6,186 nucleotides of DNA from assembly GCF_003334765.1 (NCBI RefSeq), contig NZ_QOWT01000062.1; one strand, 5' to 3'. The stretch is from Escherichia coli. Its GTDB lineage: Bacteria > Pseudomonadota > Gammaproteobacteria > Enterobacterales > Enterobacteriaceae. A program made the position numbers and the translations under genes. The notes under the pieces are model-generated. The model was not told the DNA's origin, did no database searches, and worked only from the letters and a program-made list of their open reading frames with translations. Positions 1-6,186 of the stretch are shown here, piece after piece. Every line of letters begins with the position of its first letter. Position 1 is the stretch's first letter.

Positions 1-171
1 CCGGATTATACGGTGAAGGTGAGAAAGTGGTTTTGTGTGATGTGTGACGAAGATTATGAGGGGGAAAAGTGCTGCCCACGCTGCGGTACCGGGGTATACA
101 GCAGGGCGTGGGGGCGGCAGGAGGTGCCGTCGGAAGATGCCAGGGCTGATAATCCGTTACAGAGGCTGTAA
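1..171 (+). CDS. 3' end of an unidentified ORF (5' end outside window) with a C-terminal Cys-rich zinc-ribbon-like motif
   Basis: Frame 1 is open from base 1 to TAA at 169-171. Translation: ...PDYTVKVRKWFCVMCDEDYEGEKCCPRCGTGVYSRAWGRQEVPSEDARADNPLQRL. Cys spacing CxxC-x8-CCxxC resembles a zinc ribbon. The stop overlaps the next ATG (TAATG). Absent from the ORF track because it has no start codon in the window. Family not recognised. Confidence 0.3.
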   Translation, partial: PDYTVKVRKWFCVMCDEDYEGEKCCPRCGTGVYSRAWGRQEVPSEDARADNPLQRL

Positions 172-407
172 TGGTTGCCTCCGGAGCAGTTTGCGGTGAT
201 GCCTTTCCCGGGAATGGATTGCCGGTGCGGGGACTGTGGAGCTTAATTCCGGTGTTGGTGGCCTTTCCGTTGATTTTATGCCAACAGCCCCCTGTGACTG
301 ACAGGCTGCCTCGTCATTCCATTCGTATCTCCAGTAACAGGGGGTTGTATTGTATTTTATTGTGCCGGTTCAGGTGTGCGTTTCCCGGCGCGTCTGCACC
401 GGCTTAA
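171..407 (+). CDS. hypothetical small protein (78 aa), stop/start-coupled to the upstream ORF
   Basis: ORF track 171..407. ATG overlaps the upstream stop (TAATG). No recognisable motif; GC-rich DNA can give spurious ORFs of this size. Ends 27 bp before the IS66 left inverted repeat. Confidence 0.25.
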   Translation: MVASGAVCGDAFPGNGLPVRGLWSLIPVLVAFPLILCQQPPVTDRLPRHSIRISSNRGLYCILLCRFRCAFPGASAPA

Positions 408-433
408 CCAAATTCAACAGGGATAAAATAGTG

Positions 434-459
434 GTAAGCGTACAGCCTGAACCGTCTGG
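434..459 (+). repeat. IS66 left terminal inverted repeat (IRL)
   Basis: First 13 bp (434-446) are a perfect inverted match to 2710-2722. Further inward the match is imperfect, so the inner boundary is approximate. Confidence 0.7.
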
Positions 460-504
460 TCAGAATCTGACGAATTAGACAAAGTGGTGTCCACCAAATA
501 AGTA

Positions 505-906
505 GTGGGAACCAAAGTGTCAGATATGCAGAAAAATGTGACTCCCGGCAGGCGAAAAGGCTGCCCTAATTATCCTCCCGAATTTAAACAGCTGCTTGTT
601 GCTGCCTCCTGTGAACCCGGGATATCCATCTCAAAACTTGCTCTTGAAAATGGCATTAACGCCAATCTGTTGTTCAAATGGCGACAACAATGGCGCGAGG
701 GAAAGCTGCTATTACCTTCTTCAGAGAGCCCCCAGCTACTTCCTGTGACTCTCGATGCAACTGCCGAACAGCCAGAATCGCTCGCAGAGGCCCCGGAAAC
801 CCTCAGTATCAGCTGTGAGGTAACGTTCCGGCACGGGACGCTCCGCTTCAATGGCAATGTCAGCGAAAAGCTCCTGACTCTGCTGATACAGGAACTGAAG
901 CGATGA
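505..906 (+). CDS. tnpA: IS66-family accessory protein TnpA (Orf1)
   Basis: ORF track 505..906. Position as first ORF inside the IS66 IRL and coupling to tnpB fit IS66 Orf1. The track start at 505 is a GTG; an in-frame ATG at 526 (MQKNVTPGRRKG...) is an alternative start. No strong Shine-Dalgarno for either. Confidence 0.8.
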   Translation: MGTKVSDMQKNVTPGRRKGCPNYPPEFKQLLVAASCEPGISISKLALENGINANLLFKWRQQWREGKLLLPSSESPQLLPVTLDATAEQPESLAEAPETLSISCEVTFRHGTLRFNGNVSEKLLTLLIQELKR

Positions 907-1250
907 TCCCGTTACCTTCCGGGACCAAAATTTGGCTGGTTGCCGGTATCACCGATATGAGAAATAGCTTCAACGGCCTGGCTGCGAAAGTACAAACGGC
1001 GCTGAAAGACGATCCCATGTCCGGCCATATTTTCATTTTCCGGGGCCGCAGCGGCAGTCAGGTTAAACTGCTGTGGTCCACCGGTGACGGACTGTGCCTC
1101 CTGACCAAACGGCTGGAGCGTGGGCGCTTCGCCTGGCCGTCAGCCCGTGATGGCAAAGTGTTCCTTACGCAGGCGCAGCTGGCGATGCTGCTGGAAGGTA
1201 TCGACTGGCGACAGCCCAAGCGGCTGCTGACCTCCCTGACCATGCTGTAA
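903..1250 (+). CDS. tnpB: IS66-family TnpB (Orf2)
   Basis: ORF track 903..1250 (115 aa). ATGA overlap with the tnpA stop at 903-906 implies translational coupling. Size and sequence (MIPLPSGTKIWLVAGITDMRNSFNGLAAKV...) are typical of IS66 Orf2 as I recall it. Confidence 0.85.
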   Translation: MIPLPSGTKIWLVAGITDMRNSFNGLAAKVQTALKDDPMSGHIFIFRGRSGSQVKLLWSTGDGLCLLTKRLERGRFAWPSARDGKVFLTQAQLAMLLEGIDWRQPKRLLTSLTML

Positions 1251-1278
1251 ATCTCTTTATCCTGGTTGTCACAGAATA

Positions 1279-1298
1279 AGCCCGGTAAAATACGGGCT
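1279..1298 (+). promoter_or_regulatory. hairpin (6-bp stem AGCCCG / CGGGCT, 8-nt loop) ending one base before the tnpC start codon
   Basis: Seen: AGCCCG(1279-1284) GTAAAATA CGGGCT(1293-1298) then T, then ATG at 1300. It occupies the position where a ribosome-binding site would be; no canonical Shine-Dalgarno is visible. A regulatory role is inference. Confidence 0.3.
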
Positions 1299-1299
1299 T

Positions 1300-2685
1300 A
1301 TGAACGACATCTCTTCTGACGACATCTTCCTGCTGAAACAGCGCCTGGCCGAACAGGAAGCGCTGATCCACGCCCTGCAGGAAAAGCTGAGCAACCGGGA
1401 GCGCGAAATAGACCATCTGCAGGCGCAGCTGGATAAACTCCGCCGGATGAACTTCGGCAGTCGTTCCGAAAAAGCCTCCCGCCGTATCGCACAAATGGAA
1501 GCCGATCTGAACCGGCTTCAGAAAGAGAGCGATACGCTGACTGGTAGGGTGTATGACCCGGCAGTACAGCGTCCGTTGCGTCAGACCCGCACCCGTAAGC
1601 CGTTCCCTGAATCACTACCCCGTGACGAAAAGCGACTGTTGCCTGCGGCGCCGTGCTGCCCGAACTGCGGCGGTTCACTGAGCTATCTGGGCGAGGATAC
1701 CGCCGAACAGCTGGAGTTGATGCGTAGCGCCTTCCGGGTTATCCGGACGGTACGGGAAAAACATGCCTGTACTCAGTGCGATGCCATCGTGCAGGCACCT
1801 GCACCTTCGCGGCCCATCGAGCGGGGTATCGCCGGACCGGGGCTGCTGGCCCGCGTGCTGACCTCGAAGTATGCAGAGCACACCCCGCTGTATTGCCAGT
1901 CAGAAATATACGGCCGGCAAGGTGTGGAGCTGAGCCGTTCACTGCTGTCGGGCTGGGTGGATGCATGCTGCCGGCTGCTGTCTCCGCTGGAAGAGGCGCT
2001 TCATGGCTATGTCATGACTGACGGCAAACTCCATGCCGATGATACCCCGGTCCAGGTACTGCTGCCGGGTAATAAGAAGACGAAGACCGGGCGGTTGTGG
2101 GCGTATGTTCGTGATGACCGCAATGCCGGGTCAGCGTTGGCACCTGCAGTGTGGTTCGCTTACAGCCCGGACAGAAAAGGCATCCATCCGCAGACTCATC
2201 TTGCTTGCTTCAGCGGTGTGCTGCAAGCGGATGCGTACGCCGGGTTCAACGAGCTGTATCGCAATGGTGGGATAACGGAAGCTGCCTGCTGGGCTCATGC
2301 CCGCCGAAAGATCCACGATGTGCACGTCCGCATCCCGTCAGCACTGACGGAAGAAGCCCTGGAGCAGATCGGTCAGTTGTACGCCATAGAGGCGGATATA
2401 AGGGGAATGCCGGCAGAGCAGCGGCTTGCTGAACGTCAGCGAAAAACGAAACCGCTGTTGAAATCCCTGGAAAGCTGGTTGCGTGAAAAGATGAAGACCC
2501 TGTTCTTCGGCTCTGGCCATGGTGGTGAGCGGGGAGCGCTACTGTACAGCCTGATCGGGACGTGCAAACTGAATGACGTGGATCCAGAAAGCTACCTTCG
2601 CCATGTGCCTGGCGTCATAGCAGACTGGCCGGTCAACCGGGTCAGCGAACTGCTTCCGTGGCGCATAGCACTGCCAGCTGAATAA
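1300..2685 (+). CDS. tnpC: IS66-family transposase TnpC (Orf3)
   Basis: ORF track 1300..2685 (461 aa), the longest ORF in the element. N-terminal heptad-like, leucine-rich region (LLKQRLAEQEALIHALQEKL...), a CxxC...CxxC zinc-finger motif (CCPNCGG ... CTQCD), and an acidic-residue-rich core consistent with the IS66 transposase. Ends 12 bp before the IRR region. Confidence 0.88.
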   Translation: MNDISSDDIFLLKQRLAEQEALIHALQEKLSNREREIDHLQAQLDKLRRMNFGSRSEKASRRIAQMEADLNRLQKESDTLTGRVYDPAVQRPLRQTRTRKPFPESLPRDEKRLLPAAPCCPNCGGSLSYLGEDTAEQLELMRSAFRVIRTVREKHACTQCDAIVQAPAPSRPIERGIAGPGLLARVLTSKYAEHTPLYCQSEIYGRQGVELSRSLLSGWVDACCRLLSPLEEALHGYVMTDGKLHADDTPVQVLLPGNKKTKTGRLWAYVRDDRNAGSALAPAVWFAYSPDRKGIHPQTHLACFSGVLQADAYAGFNELYRNGGITEAACWAHARRKIHDVHVRIPSALTEEALEQIGQLYAIEADIRGMPAEQRLAERQRKTKPLLKSLESWLREKMKTLFFGSGHGGERGALLYSLIGTCKLNDVDPESYLRHVPGVIADWPVNRVSELLPWRIALPAE

Positions 2686-2696
2686 CACATCCCCGT

Positions 2697-2722
2697 CAAT
2701 ACGGCCCTCGCTGTACGCTTAC
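2697..2722 (-). repeat. IS66 right terminal inverted repeat (IRR)
   Basis: 2710-2722 GCTGTACGCTTAC is the exact reverse complement of 434-446. Inner boundary approximate. Confidence 0.7.
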
Positions 2723-2923
2723 TTTTGTTCGGACTGCTTATGGCCTTTTTCCACTGGTGGCGCAGGAAAGTTAACCGGCTGCCACCATGGGATGACGTGT
2801 AAACCGTGCAGGCATGTTTTCACGTGGTGACGCTTTCATTGGGGGTCTACGCCGGAACCCCAATATTGTTCACATACATGAATTTGAAAAACTAAGCGAT
2901 ACTGCTGTCCGTACCTTATAAAC

Positions 2924-4297
2924 TTATTTCAACGCTTCCGGCAGCGTCACAATCCACAGTTCACTGTCAGACTCCGGTTTCTCCAGTGGCTTCACTCTGA
3001 GGGTCGTTTCAACCTGCTTGTCGTCAAGCGTCAGCTTTCCTTCCGCGTTCACCCGATAATCCTTGAATGTCTTGCCCTCGACCGGATGTTGCATCGCCAC
3101 CTTCACGCCAAAGTCGTTATCGTTCGCCACCGCCAGCGTTTTGCTGTCGATCAGCGCCAACCCTTCAGCCTTCTCCTGCTGCCAGCCCAAGGAGCGCAGA
3201 TCAACAACCTGCGTTTTCTGCGCAAGGGTAATGCCGCGCTGTGACAGGGTTTTCTCATCATCAAACTCCGGATACTCACCCGGCTTGTCGAAGCCTGACA
3301 GGTCGCTCGCCTTATTGAGATCGACCTCGTAAATCAGGTTACGCATTCTGTTGTTTTTATCTCTTCCCTGTTCGATCAGCAGGATGTGCTGGTTATCGAG
3401 CGCCACGATGTCTCCGATTTTAGCGTCGCTGTTTTTGCTGTAGGCCGCGCTGTCGATAGGATAACCGTACATCGCGGTTTTTCCGCTTGCCGGATCGAAG
3501 CTCACCAGACGCGTAAACAGCGCCTTTTTCTTGCTCTTAGTGTCGATATCCAGCGTACTTTGCACGGCGACAATAATACGCCCGTCCGGCATACGGGTGA
3601 GGCCTTCAAAGCCGCGGTTCGCCTGACGCCATTTGAGGATATTTGGCAAACCGCCCGCAATCGCTTTTTCCCCTTCCGCCGCCTGCGGACCGTGGATTGC
3701 CAGGATTTTCCCTTTACTGTCGATGTTAATCAGGAACGGGCCATACTCATCGCACAGCCAGTAACCTCCTTTACCATCCGGAGTGATCCCTTCCGTATCC
3801 AGCCCGCGATTATCCCCCTTCAGTCTATGTAACGTGTCGCTGAAGGCCACTTCATTGGTGGAGCCAATCACGTCGCTTGCCAGCGGCAGACCGTTGATCG
3901 CGCCTTTATCGTCATGCAGAGGACGGGGATCGATGGCCTCCGCTTTGCCGTTTTGTACACGAATCGTCATCAGCAGCGGCGCGAAATCTGGCGTAACGAA
4001 AATTTTAGTTTCGTTTTTCCCCTCTTTCGGTGAATCCGCGTTCGGACCGCGATCGGTAATGGTTGCGAATGTCAGGGCATCGCCCTGTTTACCGGTGAAC
4101 AGCAGGCCAGAACCTATCCCAACCGGAAGGCCGTTCGGGAATGCACTGGCAAATGCGCCGGCATAGTTCACGTGCGTGCCTTCTGGAAAACTGACGACAT
4201 AGCGCTCAGCCGTAGGTTGTGCCGCCAGGGCAGAGAAAGAGAGCGTACAACCGATTAGCACGGGAATAATTTTTCTTTTCATATTGTTAGCATCCAT
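2924..4297 (-). CDS. secreted or lipoprotein-type beta-propeller protein, phytase-like / SdiA-regulated-domain family (function unknown)
   Basis: ORF track 2924..4297 - (457 aa). N-terminus MDANNMKRKIIPVLIGCTLSFSALAAQP has a signal peptide with a lipobox-like LIGC; an alternative start is the internal Met giving 2924..4282. Motifs ANRGFEGLT and AEGLA resemble the GFEGL and AEG(V)A motifs I recall in E. coli YjiK (SdiA-regulated / phytase-like beta-propeller clan). Family assignment is from memory, not a search. Confidence 0.7.
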   Translation of the reverse strand: MDANNMKRKIIPVLIGCTLSFSALAAQPTAERYVVSFPEGTHVNYAGAFASAFPNGLPVGIGSGLLFTGKQGDALTFATITDRGPNADSPKEGKNETKIFVTPDFAPLLMTIRVQNGKAEAIDPRPLHDDKGAINGLPLASDVIGSTNEVAFSDTLHRLKGDNRGLDTEGITPDGKGGYWLCDEYGPFLINIDSKGKILAIHGPQAAEGEKAIAGGLPNILKWRQANRGFEGLTRMPDGRIIVAVQSTLDIDTKSKKKALFTRLVSFDPASGKTAMYGYPIDSAAYSKNSDAKIGDIVALDNQHILLIEQGRDKNNRMRNLIYEVDLNKASDLSGFDKPGEYPEFDDEKTLSQRGITLAQKTQVVDLRSLGWQQEKAEGLALIDSKTLAVANDNDFGVKVAMQHPVEGKTFKDYRVNAEGKLTLDDKQVETTLRVKPLEKPESDSELWIVTLPEALK

Positions 4298-4397
4298 AAA
4301 GTGAAGATCACACTACACCATAAAGAAGAAACGAGTCAGGAAAATGACATCGAATGGCAACATGCGCGGGCCTGAGGCCAAAGAAATGTAAAACACT

Positions 4398-4415
4398 GTT
4401 GTTATTTGTAACAAC
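4398..4415. promoter_or_regulatory. perfect 7-bp inverted repeat GTTGTTA-TTTG-TAACAAC, candidate operator upstream of the beta-propeller gene
   Basis: Seen: GTTGTTA (4398-4404) and TAACAAC (4409-4415) are exact reverse complements with a 4-bp spacer. It lies about 100-115 bp upstream of the minus-strand gene start (4297 or 4282) in an AT-rich intergenic region. Confidence 0.3.
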
Positions 4416-4545
4416 GGAAACATTTACGGAAATTATTTGTCTTTCTTCGTGATCAAAAATGCTGTGTCTTGTTGGATTGGAGTGATGAGGGCTGCGTTTA
4501 GGAAACGCCCTATATTGTACGGTTGCATTATCGCGGTAGGGGTAA

Positions 4546-4695
4546 TGCACGTGTCAGTATGATGAGCTGACCACACTCACGTGGGTGGACTGGTATAACA
4601 ATCGACGATTGCTGGAAAGGCAGGGCCATATCCCACCGGCAGAAGCAGAAAAAGCTTATTATGCTTCCATCGGAAACGATGATCTGGCAGCCTGA
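4546..4695 (+). pseudogene. C-terminal remnant of an rve/DDE-type (IS3-like) transposase, 5' portion missing
   Basis: Open frame with no start codon translates to CTCQYDELTTLTWVDWYNNRRLLERQGHIPPAEAEKAYYASIGNDDLAA*, stop at 4693-4695. The W-x-x-YNNRR...PAE pattern matches the conserved C-terminal end of integrase-core transposases (IS3 family OrfB). No upstream transposase body is present. Confidence 0.5.
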
Positions 4696-5014
4696 GTTCA
4701 CAGATAAAACACTCTCCAGGAAACCCGGGGCGGTTCAATTGCTGGATAAGATCATAACGATACACCGGGTTAAACAGGTGGTCACTGCTTCACTGAAGCT
4801 GCGTGATTATGATGGTCAGGTAGCAGAAGCTATGCCCATGATACAAAAATGACGAAAGCCGAAATGTCTGAAAGCGTGTGTATTACCTGAAAATATGACC
4901 GGCTCCGGGGTACGTAACCGATTCAACAAAGCCAATCGATATTACAAAACGAGAGGAACTATATATTTCGTTTTCAGATAAGACTCCTTGAGAGATTATC
5001 TTTTATGTAAAATC

Positions 5015-5308
5015 TCAAATATCACCTGATGTAATGTCAATGATAATATTAAGTGCGCTCTGAACAACATCTTTCTTGGTGTGATTAACATCTGACAAAA
5101 AGAACATCAGCTTCTTTATTATGTTCTTGTTGTTTATTATTTCACGCTCACAGAATAAAGCGTTGACTGCCTCTTCTATGACATTTCTCTCGTAAAAAAA
5201 TTGAGAGTTAGCTTCATATAAAATATTGGCCAATTTTTCACCAAAAACCATATTATAATAATCACTGTGCATCTTTCTCCCCCAGGGTTCAGTCAATAAT
5301 TTTACCAT
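5015..5308 (-). CDS. hypothetical protein (97 aa) in an AT-rich segment
   Basis: ORF track 5015..5308 -. Complete ORF with an in-frame stop two codons upstream of the ATG. Codon usage is very AT-rich, in contrast to the IS66 region. No recognisable domain. Confidence 0.4.
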   Translation of the reverse strand: MVKLLTEPWGRKMHSDYYNMVFGEKLANILYEANSQFFYERNVIEEAVNALFCEREIINNKNIIKKLMFFLSDVNHTKKDVVQSALNIIIDITSGDI

Positions 5309-5610
5309 GCCTAATTATGACAGGTGTAACAAGCATATTTTGCTATATAAATAAAATACATAATACTGATTATTGTAAGAACAGGAAGCAGACTAATGGT
5401 TTTTTTTGTGAGCACATTCCTTCTTATGTAGGAAGAGGCTGTATTATATTCAGTCAACTCTTTTTTACTAAAAACATTATCTATGCCATCAAAGTTGCCT
5501 GCTAGCTAATTTTTAGGATATCGCCTTGTCGTGGATTATGCACTCTAAACATGTAGAAGGTATTCATTACAAATACACAGACGGCCATCTTTTGTAAAAT
5601 GGATGCCGTT

Positions 5611-5727
5611 TTAAGTGAGATTCTGATTTTCAAATTGTTCCGGACTGAGACCGCCACACCAACTGTACCATCGCCAGCGATTGTAATCGCACTCGATATA
5701 ATTAAGTAAGTTTGCTGATTTTGCTGT
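5611..5727 (-). pseudogene. C-terminal remnant of an IS3-family transposase (OrfB-like), degraded
   Basis: Minus-strand open frame without a start translates to [38 protein letters not shown], stop at 5611-5613 and upstream stop at 5728-5730. The YIE-x-YNR...[10 protein letters not shown] pattern matches IS3-family OrfB C-termini as I recall them. Only about 30 aa of homology is retained. Confidence 0.5.
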
Positions 5728-6017
5728 TTACTGCGACAGATGTAAAGCTGTGGTGATTCATGCAGACTAAGTTCACGGACTCCGGCAGTAACACCGATGC
5801 ATTCTGCAAGCTTCAGATCTTAACTACGAAATTCATGCGAATGGTGTTTACGTTTTTTTACTGGTTGAAACTGTTTTGTCTTGTGAGTCACCTCTGACTG
5901 AGAGTTTACTCACTTAGCCGCGTGTCCACTATTGCTGGGTAAGATCACAACACTTTAAAATGCCCTATATAGGGTTAACCAGTAATTATCTGTATGATAG
6001 CTTTGAGTTCGGGAGGA

Positions 6018-6040
6018 GGTAATGACTCCAACTTACTGAT
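6018..6040 (-). repeat. IS1 terminal inverted repeat (insB-proximal end)
   Basis: GGTAATGACTCCAACTTACTGAT differs by one base from the IS1 right inverted repeat as I recall it (GGTAATGACTCCAACTTATTGAT). Confidence 0.88.
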
Positions 6041-6186
6041 AGTGTTTTATGTTCAGATAATGCCCGATGACCTTGTCATGCAACTCCACCGATTTTGAGA
6101 ACGACAGTAACTTCCGTCCCAGCCTTGCCAGATGTTGTCTCAGATTCAGATTATGTCGCTCAATGCGCTGAGTGTAACGCTTGCTG
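6033..6186 (-). CDS. insB: IS1 transposase InsB, C-terminal part (5' end outside window)
   Basis: Codon-by-codon translation of the minus strand from the TAA at 6033-6035 reproduces the InsB C-terminal sequence ...[18 protein letters not shown]. Not in the ORF track because there is no Met in the window. Confidence 0.9.

Follow-up and report, generated by a model that had tools for sequence, protein, structure and literature searches.

The YmgB (AriR) protein of Escherichia coli K-12 is an 88-amino acid cytoplasmic protein that is considered a putative two-component connector. When overproduced, YmgB activates the Rcs phosphorelay and requires neither RcsF nor the RcsC periplasmic domain to do so, but this activation is blocked by the T411A substitution in RcsD (PMC11709261). 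Helix 3 of YmgB also binds SpoT, and the R74G variant loses SpoT binding but retains Rcs activation (PMC10704370). A small YmgB-domain protein encoded in low-GC DNA, Orf131a (SPA-ORF10), 27% identical to YmgB, has been described between transposase remnants on the Shigella virulence plasmid, with a mass-spectrometry match in the type III secretome (PMC5658099, PMC6489325). Here, we analyze a gene of this family in a stretch of 6,186 nucleotides from E. coli (contig NZ_QOWT01000062.1, assembly GCF_003334765.1), hereafter the window, in which an AT-rich segment of 660 base pairs (bp), flanked by relics of insertion sequences (IS), carries a single small gene. This AT-rich stretch is known, annotated, plasmid-derived DNA of the fec island, i.e. 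an ordinary part of the E. coli gene pool that holds no surprise for a specialist.

Family assignment and predicted fold

The open reading frame (ORF) at positions 5015–5308 on the minus strand is indeed open for 97 codons, as the original prediction had it; however, the same prediction considered this ORF an orphan with no recognisable family, and this part is contradicted by the evidence below. The gene is annotated in RefSeq as 'biofilm development regulator YmgB/AriR family protein' (WP_000239862.1), and the exact protein sequence occurs on at least 998 contigs. The Pfam YmgB model (PF10798) is matched at positions 2–59 of 59 with 26–27 bits (E = 7 × 10−6 for the 97-amino acid form and E = 4.7 × 10−6 for the 85-amino acid form), and 7 of the 7 aligned relatives match the same model at E ≤ 0.001 (best E = 4.7 × 10−8). 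The YmgB structure in the PDB (2OXL) was matched in a sequence search with E = 1.6 × 10−3, and BLASTP comparison with the YmgB crystal construct showed 37% identity (pairwise E = 2 × 10−7), with the NNKNII motif included in the alignment. In the AlphaFold model obtained from the 7-sequence alignment (mean predicted local distance difference test score, pLDDT, 74.8), four helices are predicted, of which the last three superpose on 2OXL_A with a probability of 1.00, a template modelling (TM) score of 0.88 and a root-mean-square deviation of 0.7 Å at 33% identity; 2OXL is the only meaningful PDB match of the predicted fold. Both the size of the protein (85 amino acids) and the predicted C-terminal three-helix domain are those of the YmgB/AriR family, to which the protein in all probability belongs. 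Thus, because the gene is already annotated as a member of this family and is common in E. coli, the segment is ordinary rather than an orphan-bearing one.

The branch of the family to which the gene belongs appears narrow in sequence searches. When 1.84 billion representative proteins were screened by word-indexed, profile and exhaustive searches, only this gene, its fragments and one paralogue group at 46% identity were recovered, and NCBIfam holds no specific model that matches the protein. The accession WP_000239862 was mentioned in none of the papers found in a literature search; in two plasmid papers, ymgB/ariR is listed only in resistance-gene tables.

Start codon and upstream region

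The annotated start appears to be misplaced: the true product probably consists of 85 amino acids (5015–5272), so that the annotation is probably 12 codons longer than the gene. No ribosome-binding site precedes the upstream ATG at 5308, and in diverged alleles a deletion of one nucleotide puts it out of frame, with the 85-amino acid frame remaining open; the shorter form is also called by many submitters. A 97-amino acid product is, accordingly, disfavoured. Comparison with an allele 12% diverged in DNA detected no indels in the coding part and at least 4 indels in approximately 316 bp of aligned non-coding flank. The best candidate promoter, identified in a relaxed scan, is TTAGTA-17-TATAAT, with the −10 box at 5448–5443, and is unchanged in the diverged allele.

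Genomic setting and distribution

Many E. coli chromosomes are 100% identical to the window at 4300–6186, as well as over the slightly longer stretch 4283–6186. In strain YZ22MPE54, the RefSeq annotation gives the order IS66 element, esterase-like (phytase family) gene, ymgB-like segment, IS1F, ykiE and fecIRABCDE. In K-12 MG1655, yjhU directly follows IS1F, and hence this strain does not carry the segment. The 574-bp core of the AT-rich part was found in 1,700 of the 5,426 complete E. coli genomes (~31%); nearly all of these copies lie on chromosomes, with identities of 99% or more, and about 91% of the carrier genomes contain the identical arrangement beside IS1-fec at ≥99% identity.

The core is carried by 49 plasmids from E. 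coli, Salmonella and Shigella as well. Plasmid pEc387 and similar IncF plasmids have exactly window positions 4559–5947 in common with the chromosome, relics included, with the yacAB toxin-antitoxin pair on one side of the segment and an ester cyclase gene on the other, whereas other IncFIB plasmids have 4846–6186 in common and carry an extra IS1 inserted at 4846. A diverged allele (87.6% identity in DNA, 87% in protein) is found on IncFII plasmids amid fragments of Tn3-family elements and IS1. Its homology to the window is confined to 4950–5523 and its flanks are different, so that this 574-bp stretch is the real gene unit, and this unit occurs in several different mobile settings.

Anatomy of the segment and its flanks

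The features of the segment, with at least five IS relics among them, are listed in Table 1. The computed windowed GC content bears out the AT-richness that had been noted by eye (55.3% in window 1–4282 for comparison); the AT-rich part is the lowest-GC 660-bp stretch of the window (mean 0.508, standard deviation 0.079). It is foreign-looking DNA flanked by the debris of different transposases, and the 3′ ends of both IS3-type transposase fragments point toward it, in line with the original prediction. The inventory of debris in that prediction was partial, lacking the IS903-like relic, the 17-bp stub, the stretch 5710–5947 and the omptin fragment.

Table 1 Features of the AT-rich segment and its flanks (window coordinates).
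Feature	Position	Strand	Details
IS3-family 3′ relic	4564..4737	+	Last 43 transposase codons and stop (4564–4695); intact right terminal repeat ...GGGGCGGTTCA ending at 4737
IS3-like left terminal repeat stub, 17 bp	4738..4754	-	ATTGCTGGATAAGATCA, terminus at 4754
IS903-like (IS5 family) 3′ relic	4755..4933	+	Frameshifted, with two small deletions; terminal repeat ...TTCAACAAAGCC intact to its end at 4933
AT-rich cargo	4934..5593		32.3% GC; core 4950–5523 common to the diverged IncFII allele
Inverted repeat, left arm, 15 nucleotides, imperfect	4935..4949	+	ATCGATATTACAAAA; 13/15 complementary to 5590–5604
YmgB/AriR-family coding sequence	5015..5272	-	Probably 85 amino acids (MHSDYYN..., ATG at 5272); ribosome-binding site GGGGGAG at 5283–5277
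Conserved upstream non-coding region	5273..5523	-	Conserved in diverged alleles, with indels
Inverted repeat, right arm, 15 nucleotides	5590..5604	-	Overlaps the final bases that survive from the IS3-like right terminal repeat
IS3-like 3′ part	5594..5709	-	Transposase C-terminus (5611–5709) and most of the right terminal repeat
IS3-like 5′ part	5710..5947	-	Left terminal repeat TGATCTTACCC..., terminus at 5947; first ~58 orfA codons
Omptin (ompT-like, plasmid-type) internal fragment	5948..6017	+	22 codons (5948–6013); 95.8% identity to the omptin of pECAZ147_1
IS1 (IS1F) end	6018..6186	-	Terminal repeat GGTAATGACTCC from 6018; runs past the window toward ykiE-fecIRABCDE

On the left, the first relic matches, over 174 bp and at 98.9% identity, the end of an IS3-family element that is intact in L003 (1313 bp); the other end of that element is matched, inverted, by 4713–4740, which identifies this sequence as the terminal repeat. 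RefSeq annotates 4564–4695 as an IS3-family transposase without its N-terminus; the fragment had, thus, been correctly assigned to a transposase 3′ end, but its homology begins at 4564 and not at 4546. From its end sequence, we take this relic to be IS629/IS1203-like; the database entries read only 'IS3 family'. The relics to its right are nested, i.e. the IS629-like end abuts the IS3-like stub, which in turn abuts the IS903-like end. An alignment with pEc387, which retains 35 bp of the stub, shows an 18-bp deletion in the window. The IS903-like relic is ~75% identical to IS903B through its terminal repeat, and RefSeq describes 4760–4890 as a frameshifted IS5/IS1182 fragment. The stub also forms a direct repeat (D2) with the left end of the right-hand relic (4738–4758 vs. 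5931–5951, 19 of 21 positions matching). The D2 similarity extends 4 nucleotides outside the terminus (TAAC and CAAC; pEc387 has CAAC in both places), which could reflect chance, target preference or a duplicated junction.

On the right, 5594–5709 is 84% identical to IS3 of strain GF31 and 5710–5947 is 89% identical to IS3 in many genomes. The direct fusion of the two parts at 5709/5710 indicates a single, internally deleted IS3-like element of 354 bp (5594–5947) that has lost approximately 900 bp, along with the orfA start codon (ATG changed to AAG); the outermost ~13 bp of its right terminal repeat are unrecognisable. The NCBIfam transpos_IS3 model is matched at 5611–5709 over its last 27 positions with E = 0.0025; such C-terminal matches are weak and under the cut-off because the fragments are short. 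The right-hand transposase fragment had originally been drawn as 5611–5727: the part up to 5709 is the IS3-like C-terminus, but 5710–5727 is the 5′ end of orfA, another part of the same relic. The omptin fragment that follows, whose translation QHFKMPYIGLTSNYLYDSFEFG agrees with the coding sequence in pECAZ147_1, is of the kind characteristic of IncF plasmids. RefSeq places two 'hypothetical protein' calls in this debris, one in the 5′ part of the IS3-like orfA (5709–5913, minus strand) and one in the omptin fragment, running into the IS1 end (5960–6022, plus strand); given the DNA that underlies them, both are likely annotation artefacts.

The AT-rich part itself holds one gene. Two other ORFs, of 48 codons (5311–5457, minus strand) and 62 codons (5317–5505, plus strand), were rejected because indels in diverged alleles break or delete them. 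An Rfam scan of 4300–6186 returned a single match, under threshold (E = 0.76), and no family at threshold. The arms of the 15-nucleotide inverted repeat lie exactly at both borders of the AT-rich part, where ~0.001 such pairs are expected by chance.

Several observations concern the surroundings of the segment. In the CMZE120 chromosome (L018, 5001–5201), the IS66 element, the esterase gene and the IS629-like relic are kept, but after window position 4740 the DNA is unrelated (a DeoR regulator gene, rbsK and fucP), with neither the ymgB-like module nor fec there; because of this difference, the right end of the IS629-like relic can be recognised as a variable island junction. Upstream of that relic, 53 bp (4489–4541) are an 85% match to the start of Tn3-family transposase fragments, and the partner site lies on the very IncFII plasmids in which the diverged ymgB-like allele occurs (L005–L007, ~153–261), in different order and orientation relative to the gene. 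The window opens inside a gene for a zinc-ribbon protein typical of the fec island (13–171, plus strand). The IS66-family transposase TnpC that follows (1300–2685, plus strand, 461 amino acids) contains an in-frame internal deletion of 51 amino acids compared to a 512-amino acid copy to which it is otherwise ~99% identical (junction KTL...FFGS), and this IS66 copy is probably inactive despite the open ORF. Right after the IS66 element, RefSeq marks a short DUF6404 gene fragment (2725–2802, plus strand).

Proposed origin and function

The reading that we prefer, with a probability of roughly 0.55, is that the segment is a plasmid-derived mosaic in the fec island, composed of IS relics and a divergent YmgB/AriR gene whose product would, by analogy, be an Rcs connector. 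Plasmid-derived DNA would have become fixed in the chromosome, in the island that adjoins the fec operon for ferric citrate uptake; IS629-like, IS3-like, IS903-like and IS1 elements would have landed successively in or next to one another; and deletions would then have trimmed the insertion sequences to dead relics around the 660-bp AT-rich unit, leaving that unit with its single small gene and the gene's own upstream region. By analogy with YmgB, the product, a divergent member of the family, would be expected to form a small helical dimer in the cytoplasm and to serve as a 'connector' by binding to a large signalling protein, with RcsC or RcsD of the Rcs phosphorelay as the most likely target; action on Rcs would shift the expression of capsule, biofilm and acid-stress genes. 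We put this Rcs mechanism forward tentatively, as a possibility suggested by the K-12 protein. The position equivalent to R74 of YmgB, a conserved arginine on the surface of helix 3, is occupied by glutamine (DVVQSAL vs. DVIRKTL in YmgB). This residue marks one function, SpoT binding, and not family membership; thus, control of guanosine tetraphosphate (ppGpp) through SpoT is less likely, and an Rcs-type role would be expected, if the gene is expressed at all.

Several findings weigh against the preferred reading. The protein is only ~35% identical to YmgB, and canonical YmgB was not reached from this single sequence among the representative proteins searched; the AlphaFold model drew on no more than 7 sequences and may be biased toward the known structure. 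YmgB of K-12 works within the ycgZ-ymgABC operon, whereas the window gene stands alone. A stricter scan detected neither a strong sigma-70 promoter on this strand nor a terminator, and the GC content of 32% is compatible with silencing. The ratio of nonsynonymous to synonymous substitution rates (dN/dS) amounts to 0.75 when the window is compared with the diverged allele and to 0.4 between plasmid alleles, values that come from approximately 15 substitutions, so that this evidence of constraint on the gene is weak and the ratios are indistinguishable from neutrality. Finally, frameshifted copies exist in some strains and in Shigella (a 52-member cluster, with many members from Shigella).

Much of this would also be seen if the gene were a silent passenger, i.e. 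plasmid-derived, unexpressed or without a role, and kept by linkage to fec and by clonal spread. The near-uniform IS1-fec arrangement of the carriers fits clonal inheritance, dN/dS is not clearly below 1, frameshifted variants occur, no convincing promoter was found, K-12 lives without the module with no obvious loss, and silencing by H-NS would be compatible with the low GC content. Nevertheless, we consider this explanation rather unlikely given that the exact intact allele persists on so many contigs, that the reading frame, unlike its flanks, is free of indels in the 12%-diverged allele, that plasmids of three genera carry the gene unit in different mobile settings, and that a 46%-identical paralogue equals the protein in length and matches the same family. 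Two other roles for the product fare worse. YmgB is reportedly similar in structure to Hha, as described in the 2007 structure paper of Lee et al., and a plasmid-associated gene in AT-rich DNA could encode a small helical protein that partners H-NS and tunes the silencing of foreign DNA, as plasmid-borne copies of Hha do; yet Pfam scans of the protein and its relatives found only YmgB and no Hha family, and among the matches listed in the fold search there was YmgB but neither Hha nor YmoA, which makes such a role very unlikely. The original prediction had speculated on an immunity or effector-associated gene, and an anti-phage function may be added to that group; apart from the small size and the location in mobile-element debris, nothing speaks for it, whereas the PADLOC matches were weak and covered only parts of very large profiles (E ~ 0.01), PHROGs gave nothing significant, the 660-bp unit contains no partner gene and the family assignment points elsewhere, so that we regard these roles as extremely improbable.

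The origin of the segment can be considered separately. The original prediction offered a decayed composite structure or repeated IS-mediated deletions; repeated insertion and deletion, with nested relics, is what the flanks display, but the two fragments it cited cannot form a composite transposon because they come from different IS3-family elements, of which the left one has lost its other end. A modified version, which may coexist with the preferred reading, is that the AT-rich unit was once bounded, and moved as a block, by a pair of copies of one IS3-like element in inverted orientation. The 15-nucleotide inverted repeat at both borders, with its right arm being the inner end of the IS3-like relic, may be all that is left of the second inverted copy; a second IS3-like end stub is present at 4738–4754; and some IncFIB plasmids have the gene enclosed by an inverted pair of IS1 copies. 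However, the left arm is only 15 nucleotides long, the borders were set after the fact, and diverged alleles contain neither arm. The stub is a left end, i.e. in the wrong orientation for this model. With a chimeric query, an IS3-like 3′ end joined to the left side of the AT-rich part was found in 0 of 1,740 matching plasmid records. As for the IS1-flanked version, on plasmid pMRSN346647_113.1 (L016, 6231–8942) the ymgB-like gene is enclosed by two IS1 copies in inverted orientation, 1174 bp from each other, and the locus adjoins evgAS and a phd/doc pair, an arrangement that is found on several IncFIB plasmids. The outer 9-bp flanks of the IS1 pair, AACGTGCAG and CAGGAACGT, are unequal; thus, there is no target duplication and no sign that an IS1-bounded unit moved as a block, and the IS1 composite was rejected. 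A composite ancestry of the AT-rich unit is, on balance, doubtful.

A more far-reaching variant of the preferred reading, which we deem speculative and improbable, is that the mobile AriR-like protein is a horizontally transferred connector that serves IncF plasmids and the fec island by reprogramming Rcs or another sensor kinase, and that, together with the paralogues from virulence plasmids, it represents a class of plasmid-borne modulators of biofilm and envelope-stress signalling in the host; SpoT is left out of this variant because the key arginine is lost.

Implications

An apparent orphan is, thus, resolved into a common and already named gene of the YmgB/AriR family. As the original prediction had required of itself, both flanking fragments turned out to be transposase-derived and the ORF has homologues in other genomes; the analysis yielded no support for a composite transposon that is still live, nor for a role of the gene in defence or as an effector. 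If the protein is active, plasmids and islands would carry their own small connectors that act on Rcs or on the stress signalling of the host, and about a third of E. coli strains would have one such connector beside an operon for iron uptake, which would be of moderate interest.

Comparison with known systems

With respect to IS629/IS1203 (under the name assumed above), IS3 and IS903, the relics match at 98.9%, 84–89% and ~75% DNA identity and keep typical ends, but each of them is truncated or carries an internal deletion, and none can transpose. Both relics that bound the segment as IS3-type fragments show homology to IS3-family transposases (98.9% on the left, 84–89% on the right), but neither possesses both terminal repeats with complete orfA and orfB: the left relic has only the right end, and the right relic retains both ends but is internally deleted. 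The resemblance to composite transposons consists in a cargo between inward-facing IS ends, realised with an IS1 pair on some plasmids; however, the flanks in the window derive from different elements (IS629-like, IS903-like and IS3-like), and their outer ends are gone.

Among the YmgB-domain proteins, Orf131a, judging from its published description, resembles the window gene in that both are small, low-GC and plasmid-borne, but there is no secretion system near the window gene. The closest distinct relative is P0061, a protein of 86 amino acids encoded on E. coli plasmids of ~150 kb, which we count among the virulence plasmids; it is of near-equal length, belongs to the same Pfam family and shares 46% identity with the window protein, but has arginine at the R74-equivalent position, where the window protein has glutamine. 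The neighbourhood of P0061 also differs, with genes for Polysacc_deac_1, DUF535 and glycosyltransferase domains. In the loci that carry it (L010–L015, ~6001–6261; e.g. CP076275.1), the gene lies between a polysaccharide deacetylase gene and a gene of 445 codons of unknown function, with SMR, DUF535, PmrD-like and glycosyltransferase genes nearby. Presumably, this neighbourhood resembles the shf-virK-msbB2 cluster of virulence plasmids.

K-12 YmgB/AriR itself (88 amino acids, PF10798, 2OXL) is like the window protein in size, in the full-length profile match, in the NNKNII motif and in the predicted fold. The two proteins differ in sequence (~35% identity), in the replacement of R74 by glutamine and in genomic setting, the window gene being solitary in mobile-element debris. 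Because it stands alone between IS relics and outside ycgZ-ymgABC, the window gene is a paralogue and not the orthologue of ariR.

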